A stretch of DNA of 64,000 bases from a virus. The stretch is taken from positions 1 to 64,000 of the IMG/VR virus record IMGVR_UViG_3300048892_000198; one strand, 5' to 3'. The notes under the pieces are model-generated. The model worked only from the letters and a program-made list of their open reading frames with translations, had not been told where the DNA came from and ran no database searches. Of this stretch, positions 22,370-43,075 are shown in pieces; the stretch's first letter is position 1; each line of letters begins with the position of its first letter. The position numbers and the translations under genes are program-made.

Positions 22370-22627
22370 TTAGGCCTGATTTGGATGCAGAATCTTGACC
22401 GAAAGCCACGCAACGGCGAGCGTCGTGACGACGCCGGCGACGATCGGAAAGAGGAGGCTCTGCCTCGCTTCAGCCACGAGCGAGGTGCGGACGCCGTTCA
22501 CGCAGCCCGAGCATTCGGGGAAATCACTGCCCGCGTCATCGGGACAGATCTCGCAGTCCGAGCCCGAAGCGATCATGCAGGGCCCGCACGCTTCCCCGAG
22601 GCCTCTGACCGCTACGTAGCTCATCAC
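22370..22627 (-). CDS. GLG-family tail-anchored Cys-rich protein
   Basis: MMSYVAVRGLGE; six Cys; C-terminal TM. Confidence 0.7.
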   Translation of the reverse strand: MMSYVAVRGLGEACGPCMIASGSDCEICPDDAGSDFPECSGCVNGVRTSLVAEARQSLLFPIVAGVVTTLAVAWLSVKILHPNQA

Positions 22628-23040
22628 TTCCAGAGGAAGACGACACCCGCGAGCACGAGTGCGCCGGACACGATGAGCAAGGCCTTGTTAGGAGTCGCGG
22701 CAGTATCCCCGGTGCCACGCTGTGAGCACGGGCACGCGCCGACGCCCATCATGCCGTCCCGCGGACGGTACGTGCTCTTCTGCGGGAAGTGACCGAGGCC
22801 ATTGATGGCCTTCTCGTACTCGGGCTTGAAGTACGCGCCGAGACCGTTGATTGGTTTTTCGTACTCGGGCTTGAAGTATGCGCCAAGCCCTTCGACCGCG
22901 AGGCGCGGGGGGCCGACGAGGTTCGGGTTGACTCCGAAGGAGGGCCATGGCGCGCTCTTCCAACCCGCTTCTCCGGCATGCCACGGGCTGTCGGGCTGGT
23001 GCATGCGGTAGTACTCGGGTTTGATTTCGGCGTAGCTCAT
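22624..23040 (-). CDS. GLG-repeat tail-anchored protein
   Basis: (GLGAYFKPEYEKxIN)x2 followed by GLG; C-terminal TM ending in K. Confidence 0.75.
   Translation of the reverse strand: MSYAEIKPEYYRMHQPDSPWHAGEAGWKSAPWPSFGVNPNLVGPPRLAVEGLGAYFKPEYEKPINGLGAYFKPEYEKAINGLGHFPQKSTYRPRDGMMGVGACPCSQRGTGDTAATPNKALLIVSGALVLAGVVFLWK
22801..22890 (-). repeat. Two 45-bp intragenic tandem repeats
   Basis: Encode GLGAYFKPEYEKPIN and GLGAYFKPEYEKAIN. Confidence 0.85.
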
Positions 23041-23696
23041 GGGCTCACTCCAGGGGCAGCAGCGTGCTGCTTGAGAAATTCGAAGGCGGTGGTCGCTTCC
23101 CGGAAGCGCTCAGCGGCGCGAGCCCGATCCTGTGGATTGCGATCGGGGTGATGCTTGAAAGCCTGAGCTCGGTAAGCCTGAGCAATGTCTTCTGCGGATG
23201 CGCTCCGCTTGACCTTGAGGATCTTGCGCGCGTGAGCGAGGCGCGCAAGTAGGATCGGATCTGGCGGAGGAGACGGCGGGGGCGCGTTCTTTCGGGAGCG
23301 CGGCCCGGGCGGAGGCGCAGATCCTGGGGGAGACGATGGGTCGTAGGCCGCACCACCACGAGCATGCGCGGGGGTGTGGTCGTCGATGTCTTGCTTGACG
23401 CAGGGGAAGCACACCACCTGTCCGCTCCGAGCGGCAAAGGAGTGATTGAGGCACGTGGGCTTCCGGCAAACGCTACAGGCCGCGATCGCAGGCGATGGGC
23501 ACGGATCACCGCGAAACAGCACTTCGCAGGGGATCCCGGTGAGCAGGTGCGGCAGCCAGAGCTGGGATGCGCTCCGGCTGAGCTCGGCGACCCAAGGACC
23601 AATGGCAGTCCAGGCATTGCGCGCGCCGTCGGGCGCGGCCTCCGACAGATGCGAGGCGAAACGCCCGAGCGCACCAAGGAACCCTTCTTTCGCCAT
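23037..23696 (-). CDS. J-domain (DnaJ-type) co-chaperone with B-box-like zinc finger
   Basis: C-terminal ILKV...IAQAYR...KHHPDRN...FREATTAFE; CSVC..CLNH..CFPC. Confidence 0.88.
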   Translation of the reverse strand: MAKEGFLGALGRFASHLSEAAPDGARNAWTAIGPWVAELSRSASQLWLPHLLTGIPCEVLFRGDPCPSPAIAACSVCRKPTCLNHSFAARSGQVVCFPCVKQDIDDHTPAHARGGAAYDPSSPPGSAPPPGPRSRKNAPPPSPPPDPILLARLAHARKILKVKRSASAEDIAQAYRAQAFKHHPDRNPQDRARAAERFREATTAFEFLKQHAAAPGVSP

Positions 23697-23736
23697 TGAC
23701 GAGAGCGTAACATCGGGGGCCTTGCGGGTAAAACGC

Positions 23737-24225
23737 TCAGCGCTTGAAGGCGAGGTAGGCCGCGATCCCGACGATCGACACCGCCACGATCTGATTGAAC
23801 GGGTCCTTCAATGCCCGATCGAGCGGCTGGGGGACTGAGAGTGAGCTCGAGACGCAGGGCGCGATCGCCTGGCAGGCTGCATCCGAGACCGCGTCGCCGA
23901 GCACGCCGTCGCGGAAGGCGTGGCCCATGCCGCGCACGCTTCGGCGCTGCTGGCGCGGGAAGGCCTGCATGAAAGTGCGACCGAGGGCGCCATCTTGGAA
24001 GGCCTGCGCTTGCGCTTGCCCGACGCCCACGAGCGCGTGGTGCTGTTTGTAGTAGCGCGAGGTCGGCGCGCGTCGCAAGAGCGACCACTGCATGGGGCGC
24101 ATCAGCGCGCCGAGCGCGCCGTTCTCGAACTCTTCCAAGCTCGCCTGATAGCCCTGCCAGGGGGCCGCCTGCGAGAACACGCCGTCCTGCCACTCACCTT
24201 CGGGGCCGCTCATTGCTTTGTACAT
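23737..24225 (-). CDS. GLG-family tail-anchored protein with F-x-D-G-x-L-G repeats
   Basis: FENGALG, FQDGALG, FRDGVLGD; C-terminal TM plus KR. Confidence 0.7.
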   Translation of the reverse strand: MYKAMSGPEGEWQDGVFSQAAPWQGYQASLEEFENGALGALMRPMQWSLLRRAPTSRYYKQHHALVGVGQAQAQAFQDGALGRTFMQAFPRQQRRSVRGMGHAFRDGVLGDAVSDAACQAIAPCVSSSLSVPQPLDRALKDPFNQIVAVSIVGIAAYLAFKR

Positions 24226-24246
24226 CGTGGGAAATCCTTTGCCTGG

Positions 24247-24276
24247 ATGGTACCTGGGGGAGGGACTCGGGCGCAA
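24247..24276 (-). promoter_or_regulatory. Sigma70-like promoter
   Basis: - strand TTGCGC-N18-TACCAT, just upstream of the 24225 start. Confidence 0.5.
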
Positions 24277-24289
24277 ACTTCTGGGTCGA

Positions 24290-24544
24290 TCAGCGGCGAC
24301 GGCGACGACGGGATCGATTCGGGGTCAGGCGCTTGGCTGACTTTTCCGAGAACTCACTGCCTGCCGGGATCTCGTACAAGGTCCCGTGCTCACGCTTGGC
24401 GTACGATCGTGCTTCTCCCAGATCACCGAAGTACTCGTAGCGCCCGCCAGACACCTGCACGAAGTAGTCCTTCCGCAGGAAGAGCCACCATGCGCCAGCT
24501 ACCGCAGCCGCTCCGAGGACAATGACCGTCGCTGCGCTCGCCAT
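24290..24544 (-). CDS. Small membrane protein with LTPN-RSRRRRR tail
   Basis: N-terminal TM; Arg-rich tail. Confidence 0.7.
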   Translation of the reverse strand: MASAATVIVLGAAAVAGAWWLFLRKDYFVQVSGGRYEYFGDLGEARSYAKREHGTLYEIPAGSEFSEKSAKRLTPNRSRRRRRR

Positions 24545-24547
24545 GGG

Positions 24548-24937
24548 TCAACCCTTGAGCAGCCCCGCCACAAACGCCTGCGCGATGAGGCCGGAGTTGG
24601 GGGTCGTGCCCTGCTGCATCACGCCCGCGGTACCGGCGACGCTATTGCCGAAGACGACTACGAAGTCGTTCTGGGGGTTCGAGGCATTTTGGACGAGCGC
24701 CCACATGCCCGCTTGCTTGCCCGAGGCGTCCGCCTGCTGCTGCCACTGCGTGAGCGTGAGCGTGAGGCCCGTCGGGTTTTTGGGGCCCGGAGGGATAGTC
24801 ATCATGGCCGCTCCCGGACCGGGCGTGGGGGGACCTGCGTTTGCGGCCGCGCCGCCCTGCGCCTTCGAATGCTTGACGAGCAGCACGACGGCGCCGACTC
24901 CGACACCGCCGATCAGCAAAGTTTTTCCGAGTCCCAT
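24548..24937 (-). CDS. N-terminally anchored membrane protein
   Basis: MGLGKTLLIGGVGVGAVVLL; GGAG RBS. Confidence 0.7.
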   Translation of the reverse strand: MGLGKTLLIGGVGVGAVVLLVKHSKAQGGAAANAGPPTPGPGAAMMTIPPGPKNPTGLTLTLTQWQQQADASGKQAGMWALVQNASNPQNDFVVVFGNSVAGTAGVMQQGTTPNSGLIAQAFVAGLLKG

Positions 24938-24949
24938 GTTTATCTCCTG

Positions 24950-25165
24950 TCAGAAGTGCTTCGATACGTGGTGTCCGTACTTGATCCCGACGACGACGCC
25001 GGCACCAAGCGCCAGTACGATCCAGGCCCAAGACGGAATGCCCGCCGACATCTCGGCGTCGCCGAGCCCGACAGCTCGACCGGCGAGCTTGACGGGATTC
25101 GCGTCGATCTTCATGGCGGCGCCCGCGATCTTCTCGAAGTCGCCGGGGCTCATCACGAAGTCCAT
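24950..25165 (-). CDS. GLG-family small membrane protein
   Basis: VGLGD; C-terminal TM. Confidence 0.7.
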   Translation of the reverse strand: MDFVMSPGDFEKIAGAAMKIDANPVKLAGRAVGLGDAEMSAGIPSWAWIVLALGAGVVVGIKYGHHVSKHF

Positions 25166-25371
25166 TACGCGGCTCGCTTGCGACGTTTGACTGGCTGAAG
25201 CGTCGCGTAGAAGATATAGCCGACCGTGCCGAGCGCGGCGATCCAGATACCGATGGTGAGGGGGCTCATCTTCGGATCGGTTACCACGACTGGGCCGGCG
25301 GGAGAGGCGGCATCACCCATGCCGCAGCCGCAGCCCGAGTCGGTGCCTGAAAGCGCGACGATGCGGGCCAT
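25165..25371 (-). CDS. GLG-family small membrane protein
   Basis: MARIVALSGTDSGCGCGMGD; TM plus KRRKR. Confidence 0.7.
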   Translation of the reverse strand: MARIVALSGTDSGCGCGMGDAASPAGPVVVTDPKMSPLTIGIWIAALGTVGYIFYATLQPVKRRKRAA

Positions 25372-26186
25372 CAGGCGGCGCTCCGTCTGCCCGTGACGAG
25401 CTTGTAGGCGCCCACGGCGGCGACGGCGCCGAGCGCGACCCAAAGGATCGCCTTGGTGTTGGTGGAAGCAGTGGGCGCCATCGCGGCGGGCGCCAGCGGC
25501 ACGGGCGCATTCGAGCCCGGGATTTGTGGCTGCCCAGGGCTCACCGGGCTCACCGGAATAGTGGACTGCACGGCCGGCGTCGCCGGCACCGTGATCGGTC
25601 CCTGCCGGAGCTGCGCGTTGAATGCGCTCGGGAAAGACCCCGATGCTGGGTGCGCGCGGTCTGACGCGGGAGGCGAGATCTCCAGGATGTACACGAGCAC
25701 GCCACCGATAGTCGTCGCGGCGTAGTTGAGCGAGGTCGGGCCGGTCTTCGGATCGGCACCGTCTCTCAGCCTCAGCCAGTAGAGGAAATAGATCCGAGGC
25801 GGGCTCGCATTGTCGAGCTGCGAGTAGACGGCTTCGGTGCGGTCGTACGCGAAGGGCGTGCCCTCGAAGGCTGCTTTGACAGCTTGCTGCCCCGTCAGCA
25901 CCGGAGAGATGACGGCAAGCTCTTGCACCACGCTGGAAGTGGTATTCGTGACGGAGACGAGCTGGAGGTCATTGACCGCGTACGCCTGGTAGTCCTTGAG
26001 CGGAGAGGCCTCGACCCACGAGGTCTCGAGCGTTGGCGACTGTGCGGCCCACTCGGTGTAGACGAGACTCGGAGCCGCACCGATGAGCGCGAGGAGCGCC
26101 TGGTCGGCAAGCGGGAGCGATTGATCGTCGGCGCCGAGCCCCGACAGATCATTGCGAAAATAGGAGGAGCCGAAGCGCAGCGTCAC
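25371..26186 (-). CDS. GLG-family tail-anchored virion-like protein
   Basis: SYFRNDLSGLGAD; Pro-rich linker; TM plus K..RR. Confidence 0.75.
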   Translation of the reverse strand: MTLRFGSSYFRNDLSGLGADDQSLPLADQALLALIGAAPSLVYTEWAAQSPTLETSWVEASPLKDYQAYAVNDLQLVSVTNTTSSVVQELAVISPVLTGQQAVKAAFEGTPFAYDRTEAVYSQLDNASPPRIYFLYWLRLRDGADPKTGPTSLNYAATTIGGVLVYILEISPPASDRAHPASGSFPSAFNAQLRQGPITVPATPAVQSTIPVSPVSPGQPQIPGSNAPVPLAPAAMAPTASTNTKAILWVALGAVAAVGAYKLVTGRRSAA

Positions 26187-26336: not shown

Positions 26337-27158
26337 TTAAACGCCGCCAGATTTCGTGATGCAGGGCGCGATCGCCTTCTGCATCGCGATCAAATTGCTA
26401 TCAGGCATCAGAAACCCAAACACGCTCGCTTCGAAGAAGCCTACCGGGATCGGGATGGCTCGGAATACCGAGCAGCTCATGATGAAGTCCTCGCTCGAGT
26501 GCAAGATCCAGGGAGCCGGCACATGGAGCAGCCCCTGGCGGAAGTGGCGCTGCGGCATGAGGCTGAGGCCGAATGACGGCGACTGCACGCTCGAGGCACG
26601 GGCGGCGGCAAAATCATCGTCCGTCGCCGATCCCGGAGCCGAAGCCGACGGGATGCCGAGGTTCGGCATCGACTGATAGGCGGGCGAAGATGCGTTGGCG
26701 GGCGGCAGGGGATTGAGCTCGTAGTGGTAGTTGCCCTGGCGATTGGCGTTGGCCTTGATGTCCCAGCCGACTTGCGTGGAGAGGCGATTGTCCTCGAGCT
26801 CGACGAAGTCTCCGGCGGCGCTCCCGCTCGGCCTGTAGATCGCAAAGCGCGTGTCGAGTACGACGAAGCCCATCGTCTCAGGCACGTGCACGAAGCCCAT
26901 CTCGAACTCGCACTGCTGGCTCGGCGTCGCAGTGAAGATTCCGTCGATCGGCAGCCGTCGAAACACCGCCTCGAACGGCACGATCGATTCGGGGATGAGG
27001 TAGCTACTAAGCTGGCCTCCGGCGAGCATCACGCGATCGGTTGCGCACGCCGTGATGACGCCGCCATTGAGGCTCGGCTGCCCGAACAATGCTGGATTCG
27101 CGCGCCCGAGCGCGGCGAAGCCCGCTTGCTGCTGGGGGTTGAACAGAGGCTGATCCAT
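26337..27158 (-). CDS. Putative single-jelly-roll capsid-like protein 3 (minor capsid or penton)
   Basis: Beta pattern FEMGFVHVPETMGFVV, VGWDIKAN, PWILHSSEDFIMSC and terminal ASVFGFLMP; third of a tandem trio; fold is an inference. Confidence 0.5.
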   Translation of the reverse strand: MDQPLFNPQQQAGFAALGRANPALFGQPSLNGGVITACATDRVMLAGGQLSSYLIPESIVPFEAVFRRLPIDGIFTATPSQQCEFEMGFVHVPETMGFVVLDTRFAIYRPSGSAAGDFVELEDNRLSTQVGWDIKANANRQGNYHYELNPLPPANASSPAYQSMPNLGIPSASAPGSATDDDFAAARASSVQSPSFGLSLMPQRHFRQGLLHVPAPWILHSSEDFIMSCSVFRAIPIPVGFFEASVFGFLMPDSNLIAMQKAIAPCITKSGGV

Positions 27159-27170
27159 GCCTCTATCCTA

Positions 27171-28121
27171 TCAGTAAGGGCCGCTACCCGCAGGCTGCAC
27201 GATGCGATACCCGTGGTAGCCGATGTAGAGGATGCCGTTTGGGAGGCGGGTGATGGGATCGGTCGTGCCGGCGTCGGTCGAGACCTGATCGTTGATGCCT
27301 TCGATGTAGTCCCAACCCGAGGCCAAAAACGGGAAGTTGGCGTTGGCCGACGCGAACGACTGGATGTTGCCGTAGTCGGGGTTGTTGATGTGGGTCGGCT
27401 GCACCTCGAACGTCAGCTGCTCGCCGCGCTCGAATACGTCGAGGGCTCCGAGCTCGAAGGGGCTGTTGACCTGATCGGTCCAGAAGGCCGAGGGGACTTC
27501 GATGTTCGAGCGGGGGAAGGAAGAGCCGGCGTTCAGGAATTTGACCGTGTAGTCGGCTTGCATCGAGCGGAAGGGCGAGCCGTTCGAGGGGGAGAGGATG
27601 TGGGGTGCGCCGGTGCCGGGGAAGGCGAGACCGGACTGAGCCACCTGCTGGCGCGGCATGCCGTCCATGAGATCCCAGGTCGAATGGATCGGACGATAGC
27701 GACCATAGGATCGACCGAAGAAGGTCGCCTTGGCGCCCGTCACCGGATCGATGCGCTGCAGCTGGTACTGACTCAGGAAGATCGCCATGCGGCTCACGGC
27801 CACGAAGGGGCCTTCCTGGCTGATGAGGATCGATCCCTGCTGCTGCGAGTTGACGTTGGCGCCGATCGGGATCCTCACGAGCAAATCGAAGGGCACCCGG
27901 CGACCAGGGATATTTTCGATGTACTGGATGTTCGGGGGGTTGTTGGCGCCCGACCGATTGACGGTGAAGTTTTTCTGGATGTCATCCAGGCGCTTGTTGA
28001 CCTGCTCGAAGGCCTGCGAGTGGCCTTGGGCAACAGCGAGAGCTTGCTGGGCCGTGGCGCTCGCTTCTCGAGCGGTGCCGGCGGCGTAAGCGATCTGACG
28101 GGGGTCGATATTCTGAGTCAT
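27171..28121 (-). CDS. Putative single-jelly-roll capsid protein 2
   Basis: VPFDLLV, ISQEGPFVAV, YTVKFLNAGS...SNIEVP, PFELGALDVFERGEQLTFEV and terminal LYIGYHGYRI; fold is an inference. Confidence 0.55.
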   Translation of the reverse strand: MTQNIDPRQIAYAAGTAREASATAQQALAVAQGHSQAFEQVNKRLDDIQKNFTVNRSGANNPPNIQYIENIPGRRVPFDLLVRIPIGANVNSQQQGSILISQEGPFVAVSRMAIFLSQYQLQRIDPVTGAKATFFGRSYGRYRPIHSTWDLMDGMPRQQVAQSGLAFPGTGAPHILSPSNGSPFRSMQADYTVKFLNAGSSFPRSNIEVPSAFWTDQVNSPFELGALDVFERGEQLTFEVQPTHINNPDYGNIQSFASANANFPFLASGWDYIEGINDQVSTDAGTTDPITRLPNGILYIGYHGYRIVQPAGSGPY

Positions 28122-28301
28122 GAATCAGTGCCTTCAGCGGGGATCCCGCGTGAAGTACCTCGCTAAAGGAGCGAGTGCCTGTCGAAGCGGTAAAGACAGG
28201 CGCCCGGGTCTCCCCAGGCGCCACGGTCTCGATCTCCAAGGTGAGCTCCCTCAAGCGCCGTCCGCACGGATGCGGAAAGCTCGGGCGCTCACCCCAAAGG
28301 C

Positions 28302-29054
28302 TTACTGAACGTCTCGGCTGAAGAGCCCATCGAACGTGAACGTCACGACCTTGTTGATCGCGTCGATCGCGTTCAGGTTGTCGCGTAGGCTCAGCAGGCT
28401 GCGCTGGCCCTGGCTCGTCCCGGCGATGTTCGTGTTGGGATCTCCGGGCAAGGCGTAGATGTTCGCCGTGCACTTGATGTTCTGGCGCGGGGGGATCAAG
28501 ATCGCGCGGGCGAGCCGCAAGATGCCCGAGTGACCATCCGTGCCGGAGTTCTGCATGTGGATGAGGTCGGTCGCGCCGCCGAGCTGAGCCGAGAGGCCGC
28601 CGCCCGTCGGGAAGTACCAGGTCGGCATGTTGGTGATCGAGAACTTCTCGCCGGTGCCGAAGCTCCAGTGAAGTTGCTCCTCGGTCTGCCAATGCAGCCG
28701 AAACACGTCTTCGATCTGGCCTGGAGCTTGGCCCACGGCCGCTCCCGACCCAGTCCAGAGCGCCAAGTTGCCGTAGTCGCCGTTCAGGGCGAGCTCGCCA
28801 TCGACGCCCGCAACGCGCAGGATGCTGTTCCGGTACCAGGAGAACACCCGCAGCGCCAAGACGACGTGCGACTGATCGGAGGGCAGCGTGCTGCCGTTCT
28901 GGAGGTTGGTGGTGGCAGGGGTCCGGACGGTGCCCGACCCGCCGAAGAGATCGGTCGTGTCGCCGACCGTACCCTGGCTGTAGCCAGGCGTGCGGATCAG
29001 GGTATCCCAGAAGGGTTGGTGCACGCGCTCACGAATGGAAACGACTTTGGCCAT
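28302..29054 (-). CDS. Putative major capsid protein (single jelly roll)
   Basis: QPFWDT...TNLQNGSTLP...VLALRV, IPPRQNIKC and terminal VTFTFDGLFSRDVQ; strong AAGGAAG RBS, structured UTRs and position after the core protein; fold is an inference. Confidence 0.65.
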   Translation of the reverse strand: MAKVVSIRERVHQPFWDTLIRTPGYSQGTVGDTTDLFGGSGTVRTPATTNLQNGSTLPSDQSHVVLALRVFSWYRNSILRVAGVDGELALNGDYGNLALWTGSGAAVGQAPGQIEDVFRLHWQTEEQLHWSFGTGEKFSITNMPTWYFPTGGGLSAQLGGATDLIHMQNSGTDGHSGILRLARAILIPPRQNIKCTANIYALPGDPNTNIAGTSQGQRSLLSLRDNLNAIDAINKVVTFTFDGLFSRDVQ

Positions 29055-34839: not shown

Positions 34840-34854
34840 GCTGACCTTTGCCGC

Positions 34855-35373: not shown

Positions 35374-35407
35374 GATCGAATCTCCTCAGATCTAGCGGAC
35401 ACCTGAA

Positions 35408-35878
35408 TTAGCCGACGTAGACGACCGAGTAGGTGCCCGTGTCGGCGCCGTTGGAGCTCGTGAGGCTCACGGTGTTGGGCGCCGTGATCGTGGCGTGCAC
35501 GAAGCCCGGCGTTCCGCCCGGAGTCACGAGCGTGATGATGAAGAAGCCGTTCACGCGGCTCACGTCGAAACCGGTGATACCGGTGGCGCTGCCCGCCGTG
35601 AGCACCGCCGAGCGGAGCTGCATGAGCGCGACGAAGCGGCCGGCTTCGGCAGACGATCCGACGCCGTCGACCACGTTGTTGGCCGGCGTCGCCACGACAG
35701 CGGCGTTCACGTTTTTGCGCAGGGCGTAGAAGCGACTCGAGCTCTCCACGAAGAAGAGCGCGCCCTCGGGGAAGTTGTTGACGTTTTGGCCGGCGAGCGA
35801 GTCGCCGTCCGCGGGGGTGCCGACGGAGCTGACGATCGTGATGCGCTTGGATACCGGGGTCAGAGCTAGGTCAGTCAT
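35408..35878 (-). CDS. Putative spike or vertex protein, paralog B
   Basis: RITIV...SLAGQNVNNFPE...NVVDGVGSSAEAGRFVAL. Confidence 0.7.
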   Translation of the reverse strand: MTDLALTPVSKRITIVSSVGTPADGDSLAGQNVNNFPEGALFFVESSSRFYALRKNVNAAVVATPANNVVDGVGSSAEAGRFVALMQLRSAVLTAGSATGITGFDVSRVNGFFIITLVTPGGTPGFVHATITAPNTVSLTSSNGADTGTYSVVYVG

Positions 35879-35939: not shown

Positions 35940-36143
35940 CTAGCGACTGGCGCGAATTTCCTTGTGCAGCCTCACCGCGGGCAGGGCGCCGAGCAGCACA
36001 ACCGCACTCACCAATCCGCCTATCACGAACGCCGTCAGATAACCCGAGGCGCATGATTGACAAATCGTACATCCGCTTGCGTCGGTATCACCCATCGGAA
36101 TGGGCGAGGCGGCGGTGTGCATGAGGGGCATCGAGACGTACAT
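35940..36143 (-). CDS. GLG-family small membrane protein
   Basis: MYVS...PMGD; CxxCxxC; TM plus basic tail. Confidence 0.65.
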   Translation of the reverse strand: MYVSMPLMHTAASPIPMGDTDASGCTICQSCASGYLTAFVIGGLVSAVVLLGALPAVRLHKEIRASR

Positions 36144-36148
36144 GGCGG

Positions 36149-36346
36149 TTATTTCCAGGTAAAAATCAAAGTGACGACGCCAGCGCCGAGCGCGGCTCCC
36201 AGTAGCAACATCACCAGAGGGCTCGACGTATCGACGGGGGCGGAGTTCGTGCTCGGCGTCGATACCGTCACCGTGAACGGATCGCTGCCCATGCCATGAA
36301 GCGCGGGTTGCGGGTGACGCGGTGTGTAGCGATGCGGCATGTTCAT
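36149..36346 (-). CDS. GLG-family small membrane protein
   Basis: HGMGSD; C-terminal TM ending WK. Confidence 0.65.
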   Translation of the reverse strand: MNMPHRYTPRHPQPALHGMGSDPFTVTVSTPSTNSAPVDTSSPLVMLLLGAALGAGVVTLIFTWK

Positions 36347-36807
36347 CTCGTGGGACGGAAGACTCCGAGGGTGTCAGCTGTTTTCAACACGAGCACTCCG
36401 GCAATAGCGACGGCGCTCCAGAACGCGATCTTGGTCACCGTGTCCGCCGCGCTCTGCAGGATCTGAGTGCTCGATTCGACCTGCGGCTTCTGCACGGTGT
36501 CGTTGCTCGATTTGACGCTCGAGTCGGCGACCGTCGGATACCCAAACGTCACAGCGTCCCAAGGAGCGGGTGACTTAACGCTGAAGATATAGAAGTCGCG
36601 AGCAGGGAAATCAGTCGTCGCCTCGAAACTCTCGGTGTCCTCTACTTGCAGTGAGGCGGCGTTCGTTTTCAGCCACGTCGACATCTTGTCGCGGTTGTCC
36701 CCAAACACGTCGAGCCAGTACCGCCCAGCGGGCAGGGGGTTCGTGCGCATGAGCACACCGAGGGCGGCAATGCTCATGGGGTTATGGACCGAGTGGTACG
36801 ACATCAC
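36343..36807 (-). CDS. Tail-anchored protein, paralog of 36804-37253
   Basis: RTNPLPAGRYWLDVFG...PWDAVTFGYP. Confidence 0.78.
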   Translation of the reverse strand: MMSYHSVHNPMSIAALGVLMRTNPLPAGRYWLDVFGDNRDKMSTWLKTNAASLQVEDTESFEATTDFPARDFYIFSVKSPAPWDAVTFGYPTVADSSVKSSNDTVQKPQVESSTQILQSAADTVTKIAFWSAVAIAGVLVLKTADTLGVFRPTR

Positions 36808-37253
36808 GCAGCTCGACGTTTATGCAGCACTGCAACCGTAATCGTGAGACCGATGACAGCGAGCGCACCGATGACCAACGCGGTCATGTTGCTCGAGATT
36901 GGGGCCTTTGGGGCTGAGGCGGAAGCAGGTAACGGCGCAGGCGATGCCGACGGGGATCCCGGAGCCGCGGCAGTGGGCGGCGGCTCGACGGTGATCTCTG
37001 GGTATCCAAACGTGACTGCGTCCCAAGGGACGGGGCTCGTCACCTTGAAGGTGTATTCATCGTAGGTATTCGGGTCCGAGTCATCGGTGCCAGTCGTCTG
37101 AGTGCTGAGCACCTGCACCGCGCCATGATTGGACTGAGCCCATGACGCCATCTTCGAGCGGTTGGCCCCAAACACGTCCACCCAGTACGTGCCGGGAGGA
37201 AGGGGGTTCGAGCGCTGCTCGGACCCTAAGGGTAGGGGGATCCGGTGATACAC
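36804..37253 (-). CDS. Tail-anchored protein, paralog of 36343-36807
   Basis: RSNPLPPGTYWVDVFG...PWDAVTFGYP; TM plus KRR. Confidence 0.78.
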   Translation of the reverse strand: MYHRIPLPLGSEQRSNPLPPGTYWVDVFGANRSKMASWAQSNHGAVQVLSTQTTGTDDSDPNTYDEYTFKVTSPVPWDAVTFGYPEITVEPPPTAAAPGSPSASPAPLPASASAPKAPISSNMTALVIGALAVIGLTITVAVLHKRRAA

Positions 37254-37721
37254 TTACGCTCCCGCGCCGCGCGTCTTCTTCCAACGCTTGTAGCTGTAAT
37301 AGCTCGTCGCCAGCGCCGCGACCGCGACGGCGCCGTACACGTACGGATGCACCTGATTGAAGGGGAGCGTCACGTCCGAGCGGAGTGAGCTCACCGGATC
37401 GCCCGCCAGGAGGAAGCGCTTGACGGCGCCCGATGCGTTTTGGGAAACGCTCGCGAGCTCGGAGCTACTGACCGCGCCGAGGCCCTTGACCTGCACGTAG
37501 GAGTTTTGCGTGGGCGAATTCATGCGGTCCGTGCCTTGAAGGGAATTGTCCTGGAAGTACCCAAACTCATCGTAGGGCGCTCGAAAGTGCGCGATGCCGA
37601 CGTAGGATCGCCCAACGGGCCAGCCGTTCCGGTCTTTGGCGACCGCACCGAGCCCTTGGAGCACGGCGTTATCAAATGGCGCATAGGCGTGCGAGCGATC
37701 CACGTACAGGCGGCGAGTCAT
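37254..37721 (-). CDS. GLG-family tail-anchored protein
   Basis: Start MTRRLY; QGLGA and KGLGA; TM plus KRWKK. Confidence 0.7.
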   Translation of the reverse strand: MTRRLYVDRSHAYAPFDNAVLQGLGAVAKDRNGWPVGRSYVGIAHFRAPYDEFGYFQDNSLQGTDRMNSPTQNSYVQVKGLGAVSSSELASVSQNASGAVKRFLLAGDPVSSLRSDVTLPFNQVHPYVYGAVAVAALATSYYSYKRWKKTRGAGA

Positions 37722-38776
37722 TAGACCATGCCCTTCTTCTTGGCGTAGTAGTACGCGCCGCCGGCAGCGATGACAGCCAGGCCACCCATCATGAGCGCGG
37801 CGGTCGACACCGGGTGCTTGCCGGGCGGAGTCGGCGCGGGCGGCGCGCCCGGGGGCGGCTTGGATCCGGGAGCGGCGACGGCCTTCTTCGTCGGCAGGAT
37901 GTATGCCTGGCAGTTCTGGCCACCGTTCATGGTGAGGAGATCGTTGCCGGTGTTGTCGCCGATCCATTTCATCGCGCCACAGGTCTTCGCGTCGAGCACG
38001 CCCGTGACCGGGATGGGGTTCATGCTGTTGCTCGAGAGGATCGCGTTGATCTGATTCTGGAGCGCGGGCATGTCCGAGTCGGCGACGCCCCATTGATGCA
38101 CGATGGCGGGAGCGAGCTGCTGGCCCTGCACGACGTTGGCTTGAGGCGCCACGTAGGTCTTGAGCGGAGCGGACGCGCCGACGAGAGTGGGGTTCGTGCC
38201 CTGGCCGGTGCCGCAGTAGGCGTAGAGGTTGTAGTCCGTCCACACCGTCGATTGGCGGGGGTTCGTGCTGTAGAGGTAGAAGGCGGCGCCGCAGGTGGCG
38301 GGGCCGAGTTTGCCGTCAGCCGCGATCGTCTTGTAGCCGTTCCGGGAGAGATCGGCGTTGAGCGCGGCTTGCGCCTGCTTGACCGTTGCCGAGGCGAGCG
38401 TACCGGTTTGCTGCGCGATGGCGGCGTACTGCGCGCAGTTTTTCGGCACGCAGACCGCGGCGTCGTTGGCTGCCGAGTAGGCGTTGGTGCAGTCGTCGAC
38501 CGACATGCCGTACTGAGCGGCGTTGGTTTGGCAGTCCTGAGCAGCAGCGGCAAACTGCTGCGCATGGCAGTCCTGAAACGCCTGAATGCCCCAGCACTGC
38601 CAGGGGATCTCTCCGGGGGCCGCGGACGATCCGAGGCCCGCGACGGCGCCGTTCGTGAAGTACTCGCCGGCGGAGTTACTTTGCCGAGATCCGCGCGTGA
38701 TGGGCGTGTAGCGCGGCAGCACGCTGCCGGAGAGGGGTCGCGCTTGCGCGCTACGTGGGTTGAAGATGCCGCTCAT
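37721..38776 (-). CDS. Tail-anchored protein with two peptidoglycan-binding (PG_binding_1-like) domains
   Basis: VKQAQAALN...ADGKLGPAT and ALQNQIN...VTGVLDAKT; GEYF...AGLGS; Cys-rich; TM plus KKK. Confidence 0.8.
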   Translation of the reverse strand: MSGIFNPRSAQARPLSGSVLPRYTPITRGSRQSNSAGEYFTNGAVAGLGSSAAPGEIPWQCWGIQAFQDCHAQQFAAAAQDCQTNAAQYGMSVDDCTNAYSAANDAAVCVPKNCAQYAAIAQQTGTLASATVKQAQAALNADLSRNGYKTIAADGKLGPATCGAAFYLYSTNPRQSTVWTDYNLYAYCGTGQGTNPTLVGASAPLKTYVAPQANVVQGQQLAPAIVHQWGVADSDMPALQNQINAILSSNSMNPIPVTGVLDAKTCGAMKWIGDNTGNDLLTMNGGQNCQAYILPTKKAVAAPGSKPPPGAPPAPTPPGKHPVSTAALMMGGLAVIAAGGAYYYAKKKGMV

Positions 38777-38778
38777 GA

Positions 38779-39510
38779 TTAGCCTCGACGTTTCTTGATG
38801 AAGTAGACGATGCCCACCGCGAGGAGCCCGCCGCCCACGAAGCCCATCACCTTTTTGGTGTTCGAGCTCATGAGCGGGAGGGAAGAGTTGACCGATGCTT
38901 GCGCCGGCTTGATGGAGGTGACGGTGCTGCCGCCGCCCCCACCGCAGCCCGCGCTCGCGAGCGTCGGCGTTGCATAGTCCTGGCACGTGCTCGGGTTACT
39001 GTAGATGGCCCCCGAGGTGTCATCGATCGTGAGCCGATTGCGCGCGCCGCAGGTCGCCGGTCCGAGCTTTCCATCGACTGCCACCGGGCAATAGCCGGCA
39101 GCCTTGAGCGCGACGTTGGTGGCGGTTTGCAATGCCGCGGTCTTCGCGCTGTACGCGCGCCACGGGTAGTCAGCGGCGTCGCTCGTCGCGTCTCCGAGCG
39201 TGCGCGCCTTGCCGAGCGAGGGCGCGCCGGCGAGATTGCCGTCGAAGACGCCGCCGCCGTAGCCGCCGGGGCGAAAGATCCCTTCGCCCACGTTGAATTC
39301 TTGGGATCCGAGTCCTGAGTATCCGCCTGGGGGCTTGTCGGGGATCATGTCGATGTCTCTCGGTGGAAGAAAAACGGTCGTGGGCTGCTGGATCTGCGGA
39401 AACTTAAACGCCGGCCGCGACCAGATCCCGCCGTGGAAGCGCGTGGGGTAGGGCGGCACGTGCATCGTGTACGGCGTCGGCACGCCTGCGGGATAGCCGG
39501 GGCCTTTCAC
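38779..39510 (-). CDS. Tail-anchored protein with a peptidoglycan-binding domain
   Basis: ALQTATNVAL...VDGKLGPAT; SGLGS; TM plus KKRR; GTGA-coupled start. Confidence 0.78.
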   Translation of the reverse strand: MKGPGYPAGVPTPYTMHVPPYPTRFHGGIWSRPAFKFPQIQQPTTVFLPPRDIDMIPDKPPGGYSGLGSQEFNVGEGIFRPGGYGGGVFDGNLAGAPSLGKARTLGDATSDAADYPWRAYSAKTAALQTATNVALKAAGYCPVAVDGKLGPATCGARNRLTIDDTSGAIYSNPSTCQDYATPTLASAGCGGGGGSTVTSIKPAQASVNSSLPLMSSNTKKVMGFVGGGLLAVGIVYFIKKRRG

Positions 39511-40055
39511 TTGTGCTCCAGCGCGATGATGGCCTCGATGCCGAGACCGATGGGTCCCCCGAGGAGCGCCGCGGCGACGCCCCACCAGGCGTATTTCGAC
39601 TCGCGATCGCGGCTCGGCGCGACGGCCTTGCCGACGTAGTAGCCGCCGACGCCCGAGAGTACGATGCCGACTGCCGCAGCGGCGATGACGACCGCGCTCG
39701 CTGCAGCGACGGGTGCCGCCGCGCCGGGCACGGTTGGAGTGGTCGCATCACCGAGACCACTCACGGCCCGCACGGCGCGCACGAGGGGCGAGCCATTGAG
39801 CACGCGACCGAGCACACCAGAGCTGGTGGCTGACGGCGTCGGCATCTCGTACAGGCGCGAGTACGAGCCGATGCCGTCGGGGCTGCCGCGCATCCCGAGC
39901 GGCGCCATCGGATAGGCCGCGGGGTTGTACTGGGCATTGCCGTAGCCAGCGTTGGCTTGCACGACATCGTTGTGCCGCACCGGGAGCTGTTGCCCTGAGC
40001 TCACGACGCCGGGGGTCGTCAGCACTTCGTCTTCGTCGTCTTGATAGTCAAACAT
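39507..40055 (-). CDS. GLG-family membrane protein with two C-terminal TMs
   Basis: Start MFDYQ; SGLGD. Confidence 0.7.
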   Translation of the reverse strand: MFDYQDDEDEVLTTPGVVSSGQQLPVRHNDVVQANAGYGNAQYNPAAYPMAPLGMRGSPDGIGSYSRLYEMPTPSATSSGVLGRVLNGSPLVRAVRAVSGLGDATTPTVPGAAAPVAAASAVVIAAAAVGIVLSGVGGYYVGKAVAPSRDRESKYAWWGVAAALLGGPIGLGIEAIIALEHK

Positions 40056-40756
40056 CACTTCTTCTTTCGAAAGAGCGCGTAGAGAGCGCCCGCGGCGGCG
40101 CCCACGAGCAGCACCTTGACGACGGTGGATGACGAATCGGCAGCAGGAGCCGGCGCGGGGAGCGAGGCGTCGCCGTAGCCCTGCACGCCGTAGCCTGAGT
40201 CCCGGATGCTCTGCGGATCTTGCATCCAATTGGCGATGTTGACGCCGGGCATGGGAGCAGCCTCTTGCCAGCGCACGACGTTTCTTGGCGTGCTGTAGCG
40301 GCCCTGCTCGATGAATGCGATCTGCGCCGCCGAATCGAGGCTGACGGCGCCCGAGGGCACCGCCACCACGCGGCGTCCGGTTGTCGCATCGACCACCTCG
40401 GTCTTACTGAAGGGCACCTCGCGCGCGTGGTAACCGGGGAGCGAATAGCGCGCAGCAAACACGCCCGCGTCCGGGTGCACGTTGGGGTGCGTGCCCGGGG
40501 GATCGAAGACACCGTTCGATTGGATGTCGTCCATCTCGGCCAGGAGCTCGAGTTCGTTAGAGGCCCAGCCGGGGTTGGCCGATTCGTCGGAGACTTCGGT
40601 GTCGGTGCCGGCGAGCCTTCGGCCGTAGCGCCGGTCGAAGGGCGCGGCGTAGCCCGGGGCGAGATTGCTCGTATAGCGGAGATCGGAGGGACCGACCGCA
40701 ACCATCGACGGCAGATCGCCCGTGTAGGGCTGGGACGGGTACATGGGGTAGCGCAT
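40055..40756 (-). CDS. Tail-anchored virion-like protein
   Basis: SGYG and QGYGD; TM plus RKKK. Confidence 0.75.
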   Translation of the reverse strand: MRYPMYPSQPYTGDLPSMVAVGPSDLRYTSNLAPGYAAPFDRRYGRRLAGTDTEVSDESANPGWASNELELLAEMDDIQSNGVFDPPGTHPNVHPDAGVFAARYSLPGYHAREVPFSKTEVVDATTGRRVVAVPSGAVSLDSAAQIAFIEQGRYSTPRNVVRWQEAAPMPGVNIANWMQDPQSIRDSGYGVQGYGDASLPAPAPAADSSSTVVKVLLVGAAAGALYALFRKKK

Positions 40757-40777
40757 GGTGATCTTGTTTCTTTCCGC

Positions 40778-41158
40778 TCAACCGGTGGCGACCTTGAAGA
40801 CGACGATGGCGGCGATGGTGACGCCCAGGTAAAGGCCCCAGCGAGTCTTCACCGATTGGGAGACGGCCGCTGGGGCGAAGGGGGAAGCGCAGTGGGTCTG
40901 GGTGATGACGCCCCAGGCGCCTTTCTGCGCGCCCTGCGTGGCGCGCTTGGGGATGGTCTCGACGACGCGCGTCTGACCATCGGGGCACGGGAAGGGCGCG
41001 GCGCACGGGAGCACCTGCGCTTCTGCGCACTCGGGCGAATCGATATCGACCTGGTTACACGCCAGCTGCGCGGCTTTCCAGGAAGCGAAATCGGTGCACG
41101 TCGAGGCGACGGGATTGTCTCCCATGCCGCGCTGCTGGATGGTGGCAGAATAACTCAT
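40778..41158 (-). CDS. GLG-family Cys-rich tail-anchored protein
   Basis: MSYSATIQQRGMGD; WKAAQLACN shared with 41164. Confidence 0.72.
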   Translation of the reverse strand: MSYSATIQQRGMGDNPVASTCTDFASWKAAQLACNQVDIDSPECAEAQVLPCAAPFPCPDGQTRVVETIPKRATQGAQKGAWGVITQTHCASPFAPAAVSQSVKTRWGLYLGVTIAAIVVFKVATG

Positions 41159-41163
41159 CTGGG

Positions 41164-41784
41164 TTAGGACTTCTTCCTCATCACCAAGTAGAGCGCGCCG
41201 CCGCCGACTGCGAGCGCCGCGAGCAGGCCCCAGTGACTGAATCCTCCGGCAGCTCCCTTCTGCGACACGATGGTGCCGCCGGGGATCGGAGCGGCGGGAG
41301 CCGCAGCCGGCGAAGAGCAACTGCAGATCGTGGCCGACAGTCCCCATTTCCCATTGAGCGCTTGCTTCGGTAGCCGCTCGCAGGTGTGCACCTGCCCAGG
41401 GGGGCACGAGTCGGGGCCTCCGCAGGGCAGCTGGGAGGCGACCGAGCAGGGATCGTTCGGGTCGATGGGGCTTGAGAGGATGGCGGGGGTACCACCGGAG
41501 CGCGAATTGCTCGCAGCGGCCTGCGCCGCGGCTTGCGCCGCCATCGACGCGATCGCCGATTGCGACATGGGCGCCGTCGGGGAAGGGGACGGACTCGAGG
41601 TCGGCGTGGCGTAACCGATGATCGAGCTCGGGTCGATTGAGCCGGTGATCGTGAAGCCGAGACCGCGGAGCCCCGCGACGCCCGTTGCCGCGTACCCGAA
41701 GCCCTTGACGGACGCGGCCTGCTGCAGTCGCGCGTTGCACGCGAGTTGCGCTTGCTTCCAGACTTGATTGTCGAGACAAGCCAT
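41164..41784 (-). CDS. GLG-family Cys-rich tail-anchored protein
   Basis: WKQAQLACN; RGLGF; TM plus RKKS. Confidence 0.75.
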   Translation of the reverse strand: MACLDNQVWKQAQLACNARLQQAASVKGFGYAATGVAGLRGLGFTITGSIDPSSIIGYATPTSSPSPSPTAPMSQSAIASMAAQAAAQAAASNSRSGGTPAILSSPIDPNDPCSVASQLPCGGPDSCPPGQVHTCERLPKQALNGKWGLSATICSCSSPAAAPAAPIPGGTIVSQKGAAGGFSHWGLLAALAVGGGALYLVMRKKS

Positions 41785-42506
41785 CAGGCAGCCGCTTTCG
41801 GTTTTTTGAAGGTCCTGTAAAGCGCGTAGCCGCCGACTGCGACCACGACCAGGATGAGCCCGTTGGAGAGCATGCCGGCGGATTTCTTCGTGGGCGTCGT
41901 CGTGATGGGCCCGGGAGATCCAGGCGTGATAGCAGGCACGGGAGCAGATGCGGGCGGCATCGGCTCGGGGCGTAGGTCGCCTGGCGGAGGACCCAGGACG
42001 GGCTGCGCAGGCGGGGTCGGCTGCGGACGCAAGGGCGCGATGGCGGGGAGAGCCGGCGGGCAGACTGGCAGCAGTGCCAGCGCGCAGGCGGAGCCAGTGG
42101 GATCGGCGCCGAGGCCGCGCACCGTTTGCGACATGGCGCTGCAGGTCTGCTGCCAGTTGTCGTGCTGGGCTTGCGAGACGCAGCCCGGGTAACCTGCAGG
42201 AGTGACCGCGCCCGCGGCCCGCGCCGCGGCGTTGGCCTGATCGAGCGCTCTCTGATTTTTGAGCTGCTGCTGCGTGCGCGCCACGAATGCCGCCGCGCGC
42301 GCTGCCTGCTCGGCCTTCCAGGCCGCGAGATCGCGCTGATAGCTCGCGAGCTGCGAAGCGTAGCCGGCGGCCGCGCCCGCGCTTTGAGCCGCGTAAGCTG
42401 CGACGGCGTTGTCGTGGCCCGCCTTCTCTTGCAGCCAGGCCGCGTGATCGGAGGCATAGTCGCCGAGCCCAGCGATCTTTCCGTGATAGGCGCGCGCGTA
42501 ACTCAT
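41784..42506 (-). CDS. GLG-family tail-anchored protein with coiled coil
   Basis: MSYARAYHGKIAGLGD; RGLGA; TM plus RTFKKPK. Confidence 0.75.
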   Translation of the reverse strand: MSYARAYHGKIAGLGDYASDHAAWLQEKAGHDNAVAAYAAQSAGAAAGYASQLASYQRDLAAWKAEQAARAAAFVARTQQQLKNQRALDQANAAARAAGAVTPAGYPGCVSQAQHDNWQQTCSAMSQTVRGLGADPTGSACALALLPVCPPALPAIAPLRPQPTPPAQPVLGPPPGDLRPEPMPPASAPVPAITPGSPGPITTTPTKKSAGMLSNGLILVVVAVGGYALYRTFKKPKAAA

Positions 42507-43075
42507 CCTTCGATCCTCCAAATTTTGTGAGTCGTCACGCGACTGAGCATCGTTGCCTCGTCGGTGCCCGCGACCGGATCGCAGATGATCCAGCGCTGGC
42601 TCTTGGGCTCTTGCACCCGGCAGAAGACGTGAGCGAAGGAATTGGGGCGCCCGAATCCGACGGTGACGTACTCGATCTCGCGGCCAAGCTGGCGGCAGAG
42701 CGTGCCGACGAGGAGCGCGATCTCATCGCAGTCGGCGACGGCTTTTCCGTGCTGCACGATCTCTTCGCACATGCGCTCGGGATCTTGCACCTGCTCGACC
42801 GCAACGGCGTCGTTCGAGTACTTGACCTTTTCGGCGACGAAGTTTCTGACGGCCAAGATCTCCGACACGTAGTCCTTGGGCGCGATGTCCCGGACGATGT
42901 GATCCTTCAGCGACCGCACGAGCGTCGACTGCTCGCCGCGTGGGCCGACCGTCATCGAGATCATGAGCAGGATGGTGTCCTGCGGCCCATGGAAGGGTCG
43001 GATCGCGGTCGGTTGGGTAGCAGCGATGGCGGAGGGCATGGGTCGGCCTACACGAGACCAACCTGAATCGCTCAC
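42503..43075 (-). CDS. Transglutaminase-like cysteine protease (candidate virion maturation protease)
   Basis: FVAEKVKYSND, ADCDE (Cys), FAHVF (His), WIICDPV (Asp); first gene after the shared promoter. Confidence 0.87.
   Translation of the reverse strand: MSDSGWSRVGRPMPSAIAATQPTAIRPFHGPQDTILLMISMTVGPRGEQSTLVRSLKDHIVRDIAPKDYVSEILAVRNFVAEKVKYSNDAVAVEQVQDPERMCEEIVQHGKAVADCDEIALLVGTLCRQLGREIEYVTVGFGRPNSFAHVFCRVQEPKSQRWIICDPVAGTDEATMLSRVTTHKIWRIEG

Follow-up and report, generated by a model that had tools for sequence, protein, structure and literature searches.

PRD1-type phages (Tectiviridae, Corticoviridae and Autolykiviridae) lack a tail, carry lytic enzymes in the virion and many small proteins in an internal membrane, and possess genomes of ~10-20 kb. 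Viruses of the Sphaerolipoviridae type encode a packaging ATPase in genomes of 17-31 kb, while the capsomers of SPV1 (Portogloboviridae) are built from hexameric VP4 and pentameric VP10. SPV1 infects a hyperthermophilic archaeal host (Saccharolobus) and has a ~20-kb circular genome of 45 ORFs, which lacks replication genes; its single jelly-roll proteins VP4 and VP10 are combined with an inner layer of lipid and a core of nucleoprotein, its genome carries mini-CRISPR arrays, and its ICTV profile gives functions for only nine ORFs, a packaging ATPase not being among them (PMC8459092). In the Sphaerolipoviridae type, VP7 and VP4 are encoded by adjacent, unequal jelly-roll genes (PMC6414509).

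The window analysed here, a stretch of 64,000 nucleotides, comes from a 110,728-bp virus record in IMG/VR that is about 82% complete. Codon-position GC places nearly all genes between 14.6 and 64 kb on the minus strand and, in line with the co-oriented 21-kb block described in the first-pass annotation, resolves positions 22370-43075 (22.3-43.1 kb) into a single minus-strand run tiled by ~34 ORFs. Comparison of every ORF of this block with Pfam and PHROGs recognised Transglut_core as the sole family; the same scans gave a weak tape-measure/lysin-like match in a 531-aa protein and a sub-threshold PG_binding_1 match in a 421-aa protein. The 559-aa ORF at 40778-42457, previously taken for a single gene, was ruled out, as three frames are in use there, corresponding to genes at 40778-~41200, 41164-41784 and 41784-42521.

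We hypothesize that the block is the virion-morphogenesis module of a lineage of large (about 110-180 kb) bacterial viruses, undescribed so far and widespread in the environment, for which it would specify the shell, the membrane inside it and the DNA core, and we assign this reading a probability of about 0.6. It is from observed or computed gene content, conservation, synteny and predicted folds, together with the absence of hits in the searches for motor and tailed-phage families, that we infer the existence of particles, the individual protein roles, the membrane and the packaging route. The earlier suggestion of a large (>64 kb), possibly undescribed lineage holds in both parts: beside the 110.7-kb record stand complete genomes of 135-138 kb (contigs 55-182 kb, GC 63-70%), and no published description of the lineage was found in literature searches. 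The candidate shell genes and their immediate surroundings are as follows.

28302-29054, minus strand: 250-aa single jelly-roll protein, candidate major capsid protein (predicted fold, homologues)
28199-28222, minus strand: terminator-like hairpin, GC-rich and with a T-rich tail, in the gap that separates the 250-aa from the 316-aa gene (10-pair stem, 9 G-C; a consensus match only)
27171-28121, minus strand: 316-aa protein, candidate second capsid or penton-type protein (predicted fold)
26337-27158, minus strand: 273-aa beta-rich protein, third of the trio (synteny)
25371-26186, minus strand: 271-aa tail-anchored protein with a C-terminal TM helix, directly downstream of the trio and syntenic in 13 relatives

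The three adjacent beta-rich proteins lie where they had been placed and carry the motifs attributed to them, namely FTFDGLF in the 250-aa protein (D242/G243 invariant across relatives), IGYHGYR in the 316-aa protein (G301/H303/G304 invariant) and SVFGFL in the 273-aa protein (G248 invariant). They show no detectable sequence relation to one another (hhalign probabilities <1%), so that no paralogy is detectable among these tandem proteins. The order basic protein, 250, 316, 273, 271 is kept across 23 IMG/VR relatives and MAG-binned contigs, and homologues of the 250-aa and 316-aa proteins sit on contigs of up to 138 kb. The 250-aa gene is the most conserved of the block, with 670 homologues at E<=1e-3 (65-95% identity among the matches listed) that form 161 clusters at 50% identity in a search of 1.84 billion proteins. 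Its family has a compact core of ~200 aa and accepts insertions of 100-250 aa at two loops, in the way that exposed loops of capsid proteins do; 51 diverse members matched no Pfam family. For the 316-aa protein 543 homologues were found (54-91% identity among the matches listed), and the 273-aa protein, which has no Pfam or PHROGs family match, is syntenic in 21 of the 23 IMG/VR relatives at 27-62% identity.

The AF2 model of the 250-aa protein, of moderate confidence (pLDDT 71, pTM 0.72), is a jelly roll that, among solved structures, comes closest to the SPV1 capsid protein (6oj0; Z 7.1, rmsd 3.6-3.8 over 139-140 of 178 residues), yet this best PDB fold match stands <1 Z unit above unrelated jelly rolls, including a phage tail-fibre domain (9rkv, Z 6.3-6.4), the HFTV1 turret (6.3) and nucleoplasmin (6.1-6.2). 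Lower scores were obtained for P23-77 VP17 (5.5-5.6) and HCIV-1 (5.4), with P23-77 VP17, HCIV-1, HHIV-2 and SH1 together spanning 4.6-5.6, and for PRD1 P3 (4.6). Foldseek returned HHIV-2 (top three) and SPV1 capsid chains as its top five matches, at E of at least 0.07, and the nearest named ESM-Atlas clusters were PRD1 P2/P3-like at only 0.75-0.77, which has the value of a lead. The model of the 316-aa protein, also of moderate confidence (pLDDT 63), consists of a long N-terminal helix (residues 8-52) followed by a jelly-roll-like beta sandwich (75-310); VIA-align matched it with the PBCV-1 capsid (8h2i_bC, Z 8.0), EhV-201 MCP (7.3), HHIV-2 6h82_b (6.1), SPV1 (5.5) and FLiP (5.4), with PHM and PNGase jelly rolls interleaved. 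A best Z of 7-8 is typical of the structure-search tool, Foldseek E values were all at least 0.018, and profile searches against PDB sequences found nothing, with no sequence similarity to SPV1 or sphaerolipovirus capsid proteins. Since the Z values of 5-8 are modest, the models support a jelly-roll fold, from which neither homology nor vertical orientation follows. For two of the three proteins, those of 250 and 316 aa, the predictions thus agree with the jelly-roll character proposed earlier, and the solved structures that match them best are capsid proteins from viruses that contain a membrane.

The remainder of the block contains the following features.

29204-31357, minus strand: 717-aa protamine-like protein, candidate membrane-anchored DNA-condensing core protein
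31950-33545, minus strand: 531-aa membrane protein with TM segments, conserved in relatives, candidate virion-associated cell-wall enzyme
33545-34108, minus strand: 187-aa soluble protein with a conserved C-terminus (KDGIxG), present in 16 relatives including the most distant
34855-35878, minus strand: two soluble beta-rich paralogues of 172 and 156 aa ('spike-like'), 39% identical over 157 aa
35940-42521, minus strand: ~13 tail-anchored membrane proteins of 65-421 aa, several with G[LMYF]G motifs
42503-43075, minus strand: transglutaminase-like cysteine enzyme of 190 aa that heads the block (Pfam Transglut_core)
22370-25443, minus strand: small proteins that close the block downstream, most of them membrane proteins (TM scan, frame plot; no family match)

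Most of the first-pass description of these genes was borne out. The basic core protein comprises an Arg/Lys-rich N-terminal part of ~400 aa (net ~+163), hydrophobic helices and GLG/GEYF repeats, and in 19 of 22 relatives the place directly upstream of the 250-aa gene is taken by a basic counterpart (596-905 aa, net +107 to +197). For the ~20 small membrane proteins the count is 21, each tail-anchored by a C-terminal hydrophobic helix with trailing basic residues. The spike-like paralogues (34855 and 35408) have no Pfam or PHROGs family match, and a second paralogue pair is found at 36343 and 36804 (47% identity). The transglutaminase-like protein, recognised at 42575-42895 with 26.9 bits against a cut-off of 23, is kept even in a distant compact-capsid branch. 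The PHROG matches of the 531-aa protein to lysin or tape-measure-like families are weak (E 7.5e-5 to 4e-3, residues 168-266), and PG_binding_1 in the 421-aa member of the 35940-42521 run reached E 0.0026, under the cut-off.

Packaging motors were searched for in the window's record and in four complete relatives, one of which, G001 (135,429 bp, bearing a terminal repeat), was read from end to end. FtsK_SpoIIIE and Pox_A32 gave no match above threshold in any of these five records, their sub-threshold P-loop matches falling on apparently helicase-sized ORFs. A Walker-A scan of G001 found canonical motifs only in DnaB and in a 192-aa AAA_28 kinase-like protein, which sits in a nucleotide-metabolism block, and yielded no candidate for a packaging or conjugation ATPase. 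That no motor was detected is negative evidence, and a very divergent ATPase or a host enzyme may act instead. These searches bear on the possibility that the block belongs to a true vertical single-jelly-roll virus with two major capsid proteins (P23-77, IN93, SH1, HHIV-2), in which heterodimeric capsomers would consist of the 250-aa and 316-aa proteins and a packaging ATPase would pump in the DNA. The leading Foldseek rank of HHIV-2, the Z values of the sphaerolipovirus proteins against both models and the two adjacent unequal jelly-roll genes, as in VP7/VP4 (PMC6414509), all speak for it. However, SPV1 outscores every sphaerolipovirus protein on the 250-aa model, the genome here is 4-8 times the size of theirs, no relation is seen in sequence, and the FtsK/HerA-type ATPase to which the first-pass annotation pointed elsewhere on the contig was found neither there nor in the complete relatives. 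Because no packaging ATPase was found, the P23-77/SH1-type framing fails on a defining feature, SPV1 being nearer, and we consider membership of that type quite improbable.

The same five records address a further alternative, a tailed phage in which divergence has made the terminase, portal, HK97 capsid and tail genes unrecognisable and the jelly rolls are fibres, decoration or receptor-binding proteins. Tail fibres and decoration proteins often contain jelly rolls, as the scores of 9rkv and the HFTV1 turret illustrate, a 1695-aa collagen-like protein elsewhere in the record matches tail-fibre PHROGs, and the replication genes are phage-like. Large terminases, however, rank among the best-detected phage proteins, and PHROG and Pfam scans covering all ORFs in the window's record and in the additional 27 kb of G001 found none. 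Six-frame searches found TerL_ATPase and Terminase_3 absent from the record and the four complete relatives, and Terminase_6N absent from the relatives. Phage_portal and Phage_capsid, represented by one Pfam family each that divergent folds may escape, were likewise absent from all five records in six frames; PHROG head or portal matches were lacking in the window's record and the G001 extra, and the block itself contains no tail family of Pfam or PHROGs. The collagen-like protein's matches are to the repeat itself (Pfam Collagen), and the Walker-A scan leaves only DnaB and the small kinase-like protein. A disguised tailed phage is therefore very unlikely, and the earlier statement that tailed-phage hallmarks are lacking can be extended from the block to the rest of the 110.7-kb record and G001, with four Pfam profiles also negative in three more complete relatives.

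Outside the block, the phage-like replication genes include bacterial-type DnaB, beta clamp and sigma-70 factors. Numerous glycosyltransferases, a CRISPR-Cas12-like locus and an IS1-like transposase are also encoded, as well as a mini-CRISPR array with a spacer that targets a gene of a relative. Apart from small genes, the 27 kb of G001 missing from the window's record encode only an integrase, RNase H and a TA toxin. Such a cargo, the many membrane proteins and the absence of a detected packaging motor would also suit a non-viral large plasmid-like or integrative element, the block then being a cell-envelope or membrane-associated structure, and matches in cellular genomes are confined to MAG bins. 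We regard this explanation as unlikely: neither conjugation ATPases nor further canonical P-loop proteins were found in G001, and many genes match phage-only PHROG families. Moreover, the block genes are compact, conserved to an extreme degree and strongly syntenic, the best structural matches are capsid proteins, the conserved protamine-like protein alongside suits DNA condensation, and the complete relatives are of uniform size.

Under the preferred reading as a virion-morphogenesis module, the 250-aa protein would make up the bulk of an icosahedral outer shell and the 316-aa protein would be a second shell or vertex protein, while the ~20 tail-anchored proteins would fill an internal lipid membrane under the shell. 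The 717-aa protein could condense the DNA and tether it to the membrane via its hydrophobic segment. Because no packaging motor is detectable, the genome would probably be enclosed by co-assembly of the condensed nucleoprotein core, membrane and shell, by analogy with SPV1, and probably not pumped into a preformed capsid. To our knowledge, motor-less enclosure of a 135-kb genome has no precedent. Maturation and passage through the cell wall may be the task of the transglutaminase-like enzyme together with the lysin-like membrane proteins. We further propose, tentatively and at somewhat less than even odds, that this is an unnamed lineage of high rank (family level or well above) with a giant-virus-sized, membrane-lined jelly-roll capsid and a 135-kb genome, in which DNA is condensed on the membrane-anchored protamine-like protein and the shell is assembled around it with no packaging motor. 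If so, these viruses would greatly exceed all other tailless viruses of prokaryotes in size and would give bacteria a counterpart to the architecture of archaeal SPV1.

Among known systems, the PRD1-type phages resemble the block, as far as genes can tell, in many small membrane proteins and in lytic-enzyme candidates, but a double jelly-roll protein, an A32/FtsK-type ATPase and a protein-primed polymerase were not found here. Sphaerolipoviridae (P23-77 VP16/VP17, IN93, SH1, HHIV-2 and HCIV-1 VP7/VP4; 3zmn, 6h82, 6h9c, 6qt9) share with it two adjacent unequal jelly-roll candidates beside membrane-protein genes; they differ in their packaging ATPase, and their Z scores on the 250-aa model lie below that of SPV1. 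Unlike SPV1, the lineage has a genome of ~135 kb instead of 20 kb and bacterial-type DnaB, clamp and sigma factors, and its core candidate is a protamine-like membrane protein of 600-900 aa, whereas that of SPV1 is a small VP1-type nucleocapsid protein. In the combination of jelly-roll candidates, many small membrane proteins, a DNA-condensing candidate and no ATPase found, a likeness drawn here at the level of genes, and in carrying a mini-CRISPR array, it nevertheless parallels SPV1, and Portogloboviridae is a nearer analogue than the P23-77/SH1 type.

The window comprises the first 64 kb of one linear IMG/VR virus contig of 110,728 bp (CheckV completeness 82%); its G+C content is 60-67% throughout, and no tRNA genes were found in it. 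Codon-position GC places nearly all genes between ~14.6 and 64 kb on the minus strand. The putative virion block at 22370-43075 is tiled by about 34 minus-strand ORFs, each of which was scanned with Pfam and PHROGs, and three results were obtained, which are included in the following list.

Main features of the putative virion block (window positions)
25371-26186, minus strand, 271-aa protein
26337-27158, minus strand, 273-aa protein
27171-28121, minus strand, 316-aa protein
28302-29054, minus strand, 250-aa protein
29204-31357, minus strand, 717-aa protamine-like protein
31950-33545, minus strand, 531-aa protein, weak match to a tape-measure/endolysin-like segment (E 7.5e-5 to 4e-3)
33545-34108, minus strand, 187-aa protein
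within 22370-43075, minus strand, 421-aa protein, sub-threshold peptidoglycan-binding match (Pfam/PHROGs scan)
42503-43075, minus strand, transglutaminase-like protein, Transglut_core (Pfam 26.9 bits, cut-off 23)

In none of the block's ORFs did these scans detect a family of terminases, portals, HK97 capsids, tails or tape measures proper, which bears out what the first-pass annotation had read from the sequence. The three adjacent proteins that it singled out (250, 316 and 273 aa) are present with their terminal motifs, and the glycine of each motif is invariant among relatives. Its estimate of about 20 small membrane proteins agrees with a hydropathy scan, which counted 21 proteins of the block that end in a hydrophobic helix plus basic residues. 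The 559-aa ORF that it placed at 40778-42457 is an artefact of GC-rich sequence, as three shorter genes lie there in three frames. Two paralogue pairs were found (34855/35408 and 36343/36804). The claimed basic core protein is indeed basic: the N-terminal ~400 residues of the 717-aa protein are rich in Arg and Lys (net charge about +163), and they are followed by hydrophobic helices and then GLG/GEYF repeats. Many of the tail-anchored proteins encoded at 22370-42521 (minus strand) carry recurring G[LMYF]G motifs, and the 717-aa protein has nine of them in its C-terminal half. A terminator-like hairpin, identified by consensus match only, directly follows the 250-aa gene and would fit higher expression of that gene.

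Three tandem single-jelly-roll-like proteins, comparable to those of P23-77 and SH1, had been proposed; fold searches were run on two of them, and both were modelled as jelly rolls, while homology of either to known capsid proteins, those of P23-77 and SH1 included, is unproven. Foldseek searches of the two models against PDB and BFVD gave no match at E<=0.001. For the 250-aa model, built from a 53-sequence alignment (pLDDT 71, pTM 0.72), the five top PDB hits, none of them significant, were capsid chains of HHIV-2 (E 0.07-0.10) and of Sulfolobus polyhedral virus 1 (SPV1, Portogloboviridae), with HCIV-1, SH1 and PRD1 P3 further down the list. The independent VIA-align search, covering 48,161 chains, ranked the SPV1 capsid structure 6oj0 first (Z 7.1, rmsd 3.8, 140/178 residues), ahead of unrelated jelly rolls, namely nucleoplasmins and a tail-fibre domain (Z 6.0-6.3), and of P23-77 VP17 (Z 5.6) and HCIV-1 (Z 5.4). 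The 316-aa model (pLDDT 63) combines a long N-terminal helix with a beta sandwich and best matches the PBCV-1 capsid chain 8h2i_bC (Z 8.0) and the EhV-201 MCP (7.3); PHM and PNGase jelly rolls reach Z 6.2-6.7, and further matches include faustovirus, hexon, HHIV-2 (6.1), ASFV p72, SPV1 (5.5) and FLiP (5.4). Since best Z values of 7-8 are typical for models without a clear match, we regard the predicted jelly-roll fold of both proteins as supported and the enrichment of capsid proteins of membrane-containing viruses among their matches as suggestive.

Sequence comparisons detected no known capsid family: Pfam and PHROGs were run on the 250-, 316- and 273-aa proteins and Pfam also on 51 diverse 250-aa family members, and three alignments used as profiles against PDB sequences gave no capsid match. 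The 316-aa protein matched nothing by tblastn in 50,697 GenBank phage records. For the 250-aa and 273-aa proteins there was no structure in the ESM Atlas, whose nearest named clusters, PRD1 P2/P3, scored only 0.75-0.77. Tandem paralogy of the 250-, 316- and 273-aa proteins was rejected at the sequence level, because hhalign shows no relation among the three families. The longer members of the 250-aa family were considered as double jelly-roll fusions and proved to be single cores with loop insertions.

The gene set is widespread and conserved. We found 670 homologues of the 250-aa protein and 543 of the 316-aa protein, many on contigs of 110-138 kb and none with a Pfam domain or a name other than 'hypothetical'. 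Among 1.84 billion cluster representatives, a profile search assigned 161 clusters to the 250-aa family; they include compact 190-230-aa forms and forms with 100-250-aa insertions at two loops, a pattern that one would expect of a shell protein whose loops are exposed. The order basic protein, 250, 316, 273, 271 is the same in 23 IMG/VR contigs (38-182 kb), and the compact-form branch keeps, in order, the transglutaminase-like, 187-aa, 109-aa, 250-aa and 316-aa genes. In 19 of 22 relatives a protamine-like protein (596-905 aa, net charge +107 to +197) is encoded directly upstream of the 250-aa gene. Just upstream of the block (44059-46581, minus strand), an 840-aa acidic protein with a long charged coiled coil and a proline-rich region gave no family match; it is kept even in the distant compact-capsid branch and may serve assembly as a scaffold or in a tape-like way. 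In full-text literature of partial coverage we found no account of such viruses, which falls short of proof.

Scans of all larger ORFs in the remainder of the record identified DnaB, a beta clamp and a sigma factor, ThyX and MazG-type enzymes, methyltransferases and glycosyltransferases, an ATP-grasp and a Kelch protein, one collagen-repeat protein of 1695 aa, and families of unknown function that occur in phages only. None of these ORFs was recognised as a head, portal, terminase or tail-tube gene. Because the record is incomplete, it was compared with the complete genome closest to it, G001, which measures 135,429 bp and carries a 120-bp terminal repeat; the two are colinear except for one inversion. 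The ~27 kb of G001 that the record lacks contains small genes only (integrase, RNase H, a TA toxin, DUF7227), none of them longer than 392 aa and none from a structural family. The missing 18% of the record was thus rejected as a hiding place for head or packaging genes. HK97 capsid, terminase and tail genes were detected in neither genome, and six-frame HMM searches of four relatives at CheckV 100%, three with terminal repeats, yielded no above-threshold match to Terminase_6N, TerL_ATPase, Terminase_3, Phage_capsid, Phage_portal, FtsK_SpoIIIE and Pox_A32 (the record itself was run with all but Terminase_6N). A six-frame Walker-A scan of G001 returned only DnaB and a 192-aa protein, which matches the kinase-like AAA_28 family and lies in a nucleotide-metabolism block beside ThyX and MazG-type genes; on these grounds it was rejected as a packaging ATPase. 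A divergent tailed phage is unlikely, since the complete genome is without any terminase-like P-loop protein. The FtsK/HerA-type ATPase sought elsewhere on the contig was found neither there nor in the complete relatives, and a sphaerolipovirus-type virus with a hidden ATPase, to which the HHIV-2 and SH1 hits might point, appears improbable.

Several accessory loci lie around the block and at the contig ends. At 59-1996, a mini-CRISPR array of five identical 36-nt repeats and four spacers adjoins a 514-aa Cas12-like gene, whose Pfam match is only a weak one to a TNB domain. The spacer at 166-203 matches this gene itself at 1850-1887 with two mismatches, and, because it matches the homologous gene of G001 at 27/28 positions, the array suggests virus-versus-virus targeting like that by SPV1 mini-arrays. 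The other contig end (record positions ~110,350-110,700; ~16,350-16,700 of L003, a further stretch of the record) bears a second array of this repeat family, degenerate and oppositely oriented. As the two arrays flank the ~27 kb missing relative to G001, the assembly may have broken at the repeats. A 299-aa protein that matches an IS1-type DDE transposase (13701-14600, plus strand) is encoded opposite to its neighbours and has no counterpart at the same position in G001. The integrase, toxin, IS-like transposase and CRISPR-Cas12-like locus would suit a non-viral element, and particles are predicted here from gene content; such an element has a low but real probability.

Near the contig start, a GDSL/SGNH lipase-like protein, a subtilase and a CHAP-domain protein (3938-4804, 7662-8843 and 9709-10458, minus strand) form a cluster of possible lysis or entry enzymes outside the block. 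Directly downstream of the block, 14617-22409 (minus strand) encodes a Dam-type DNA methyltransferase, a DnaJ-domain protein, FkbM- and PCMT-type methyltransferases and two to three GT4 glycosyltransferases; these enzymes, and further fusions of glycosyltransferase and methyltransferase at 84.6 and 107.8 kb, hint that virion proteins may be glycosylated. Further along the record (L002/L003, stretches beyond the window), the collagen-repeat gene (95401-100488, plus strand) is followed by nine co-oriented genes for proteins of 110-284 aa (101011-105908, plus strand), and the Kelch-repeat gene lies at 91069-92094; this set, conserved in G001, is a possible fibre or vertex-appendage module. A scan of GTDB genomes matched only contigs in MAG bins of mixed phyla (4/10 Planctomycetota), with no isolate and no clear prophage, and one homologue is labelled Gemmatimonadales. 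The overrepresentation of Planctomycetota among these few cellular-bin matches is a lead to the host, not an assignment.

The lineage has neither the hallmarks of tailed phages nor the packaging ATPase by which the P23-77/SH1/HHIV-2 group and PRD1-like phages are defined. It keeps the predicted jelly-roll pair, many membrane proteins that are tail-anchored and others that look muralytic, and a conserved protamine-like protein with a membrane anchor. To our knowledge, every prokaryotic virus whose genome exceeds about 50 kb is a tailed phage, and all tailless membrane-containing phages are small, roughly 10-31 kb. Widespread jelly-roll bacterial viruses of 110-180 kb without a terminase or FtsK-type ATPase would, if real, break both size rules, constitute a major new branch of virus taxonomy mislabelled or missed by current marker-based classifiers, and raise the question of how a 135-kb genome is enclosed without a motor. 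The 250-aa shell protein candidate and the protamine-like protein provide direct experimental handles, and with the family profile the lineage can be traced in metagenomes and its host searched for.

The closest described architecture is that of SPV1, in which the single jelly-roll proteins VP4 and VP10 enclose an inner lipid layer that carries sub-capsomer membrane proteins, and a core of DNA and protein is wound into a sphere (PMC8459092). We therefore propose that a condensed nucleoprotein core could co-assemble with membrane and shell, in place of motor-driven packaging. The lineage is not a member of the Portogloboviridae, since it has no sequence similarity to that family and differs from it in genome size, host domain, replication genes and core protein.
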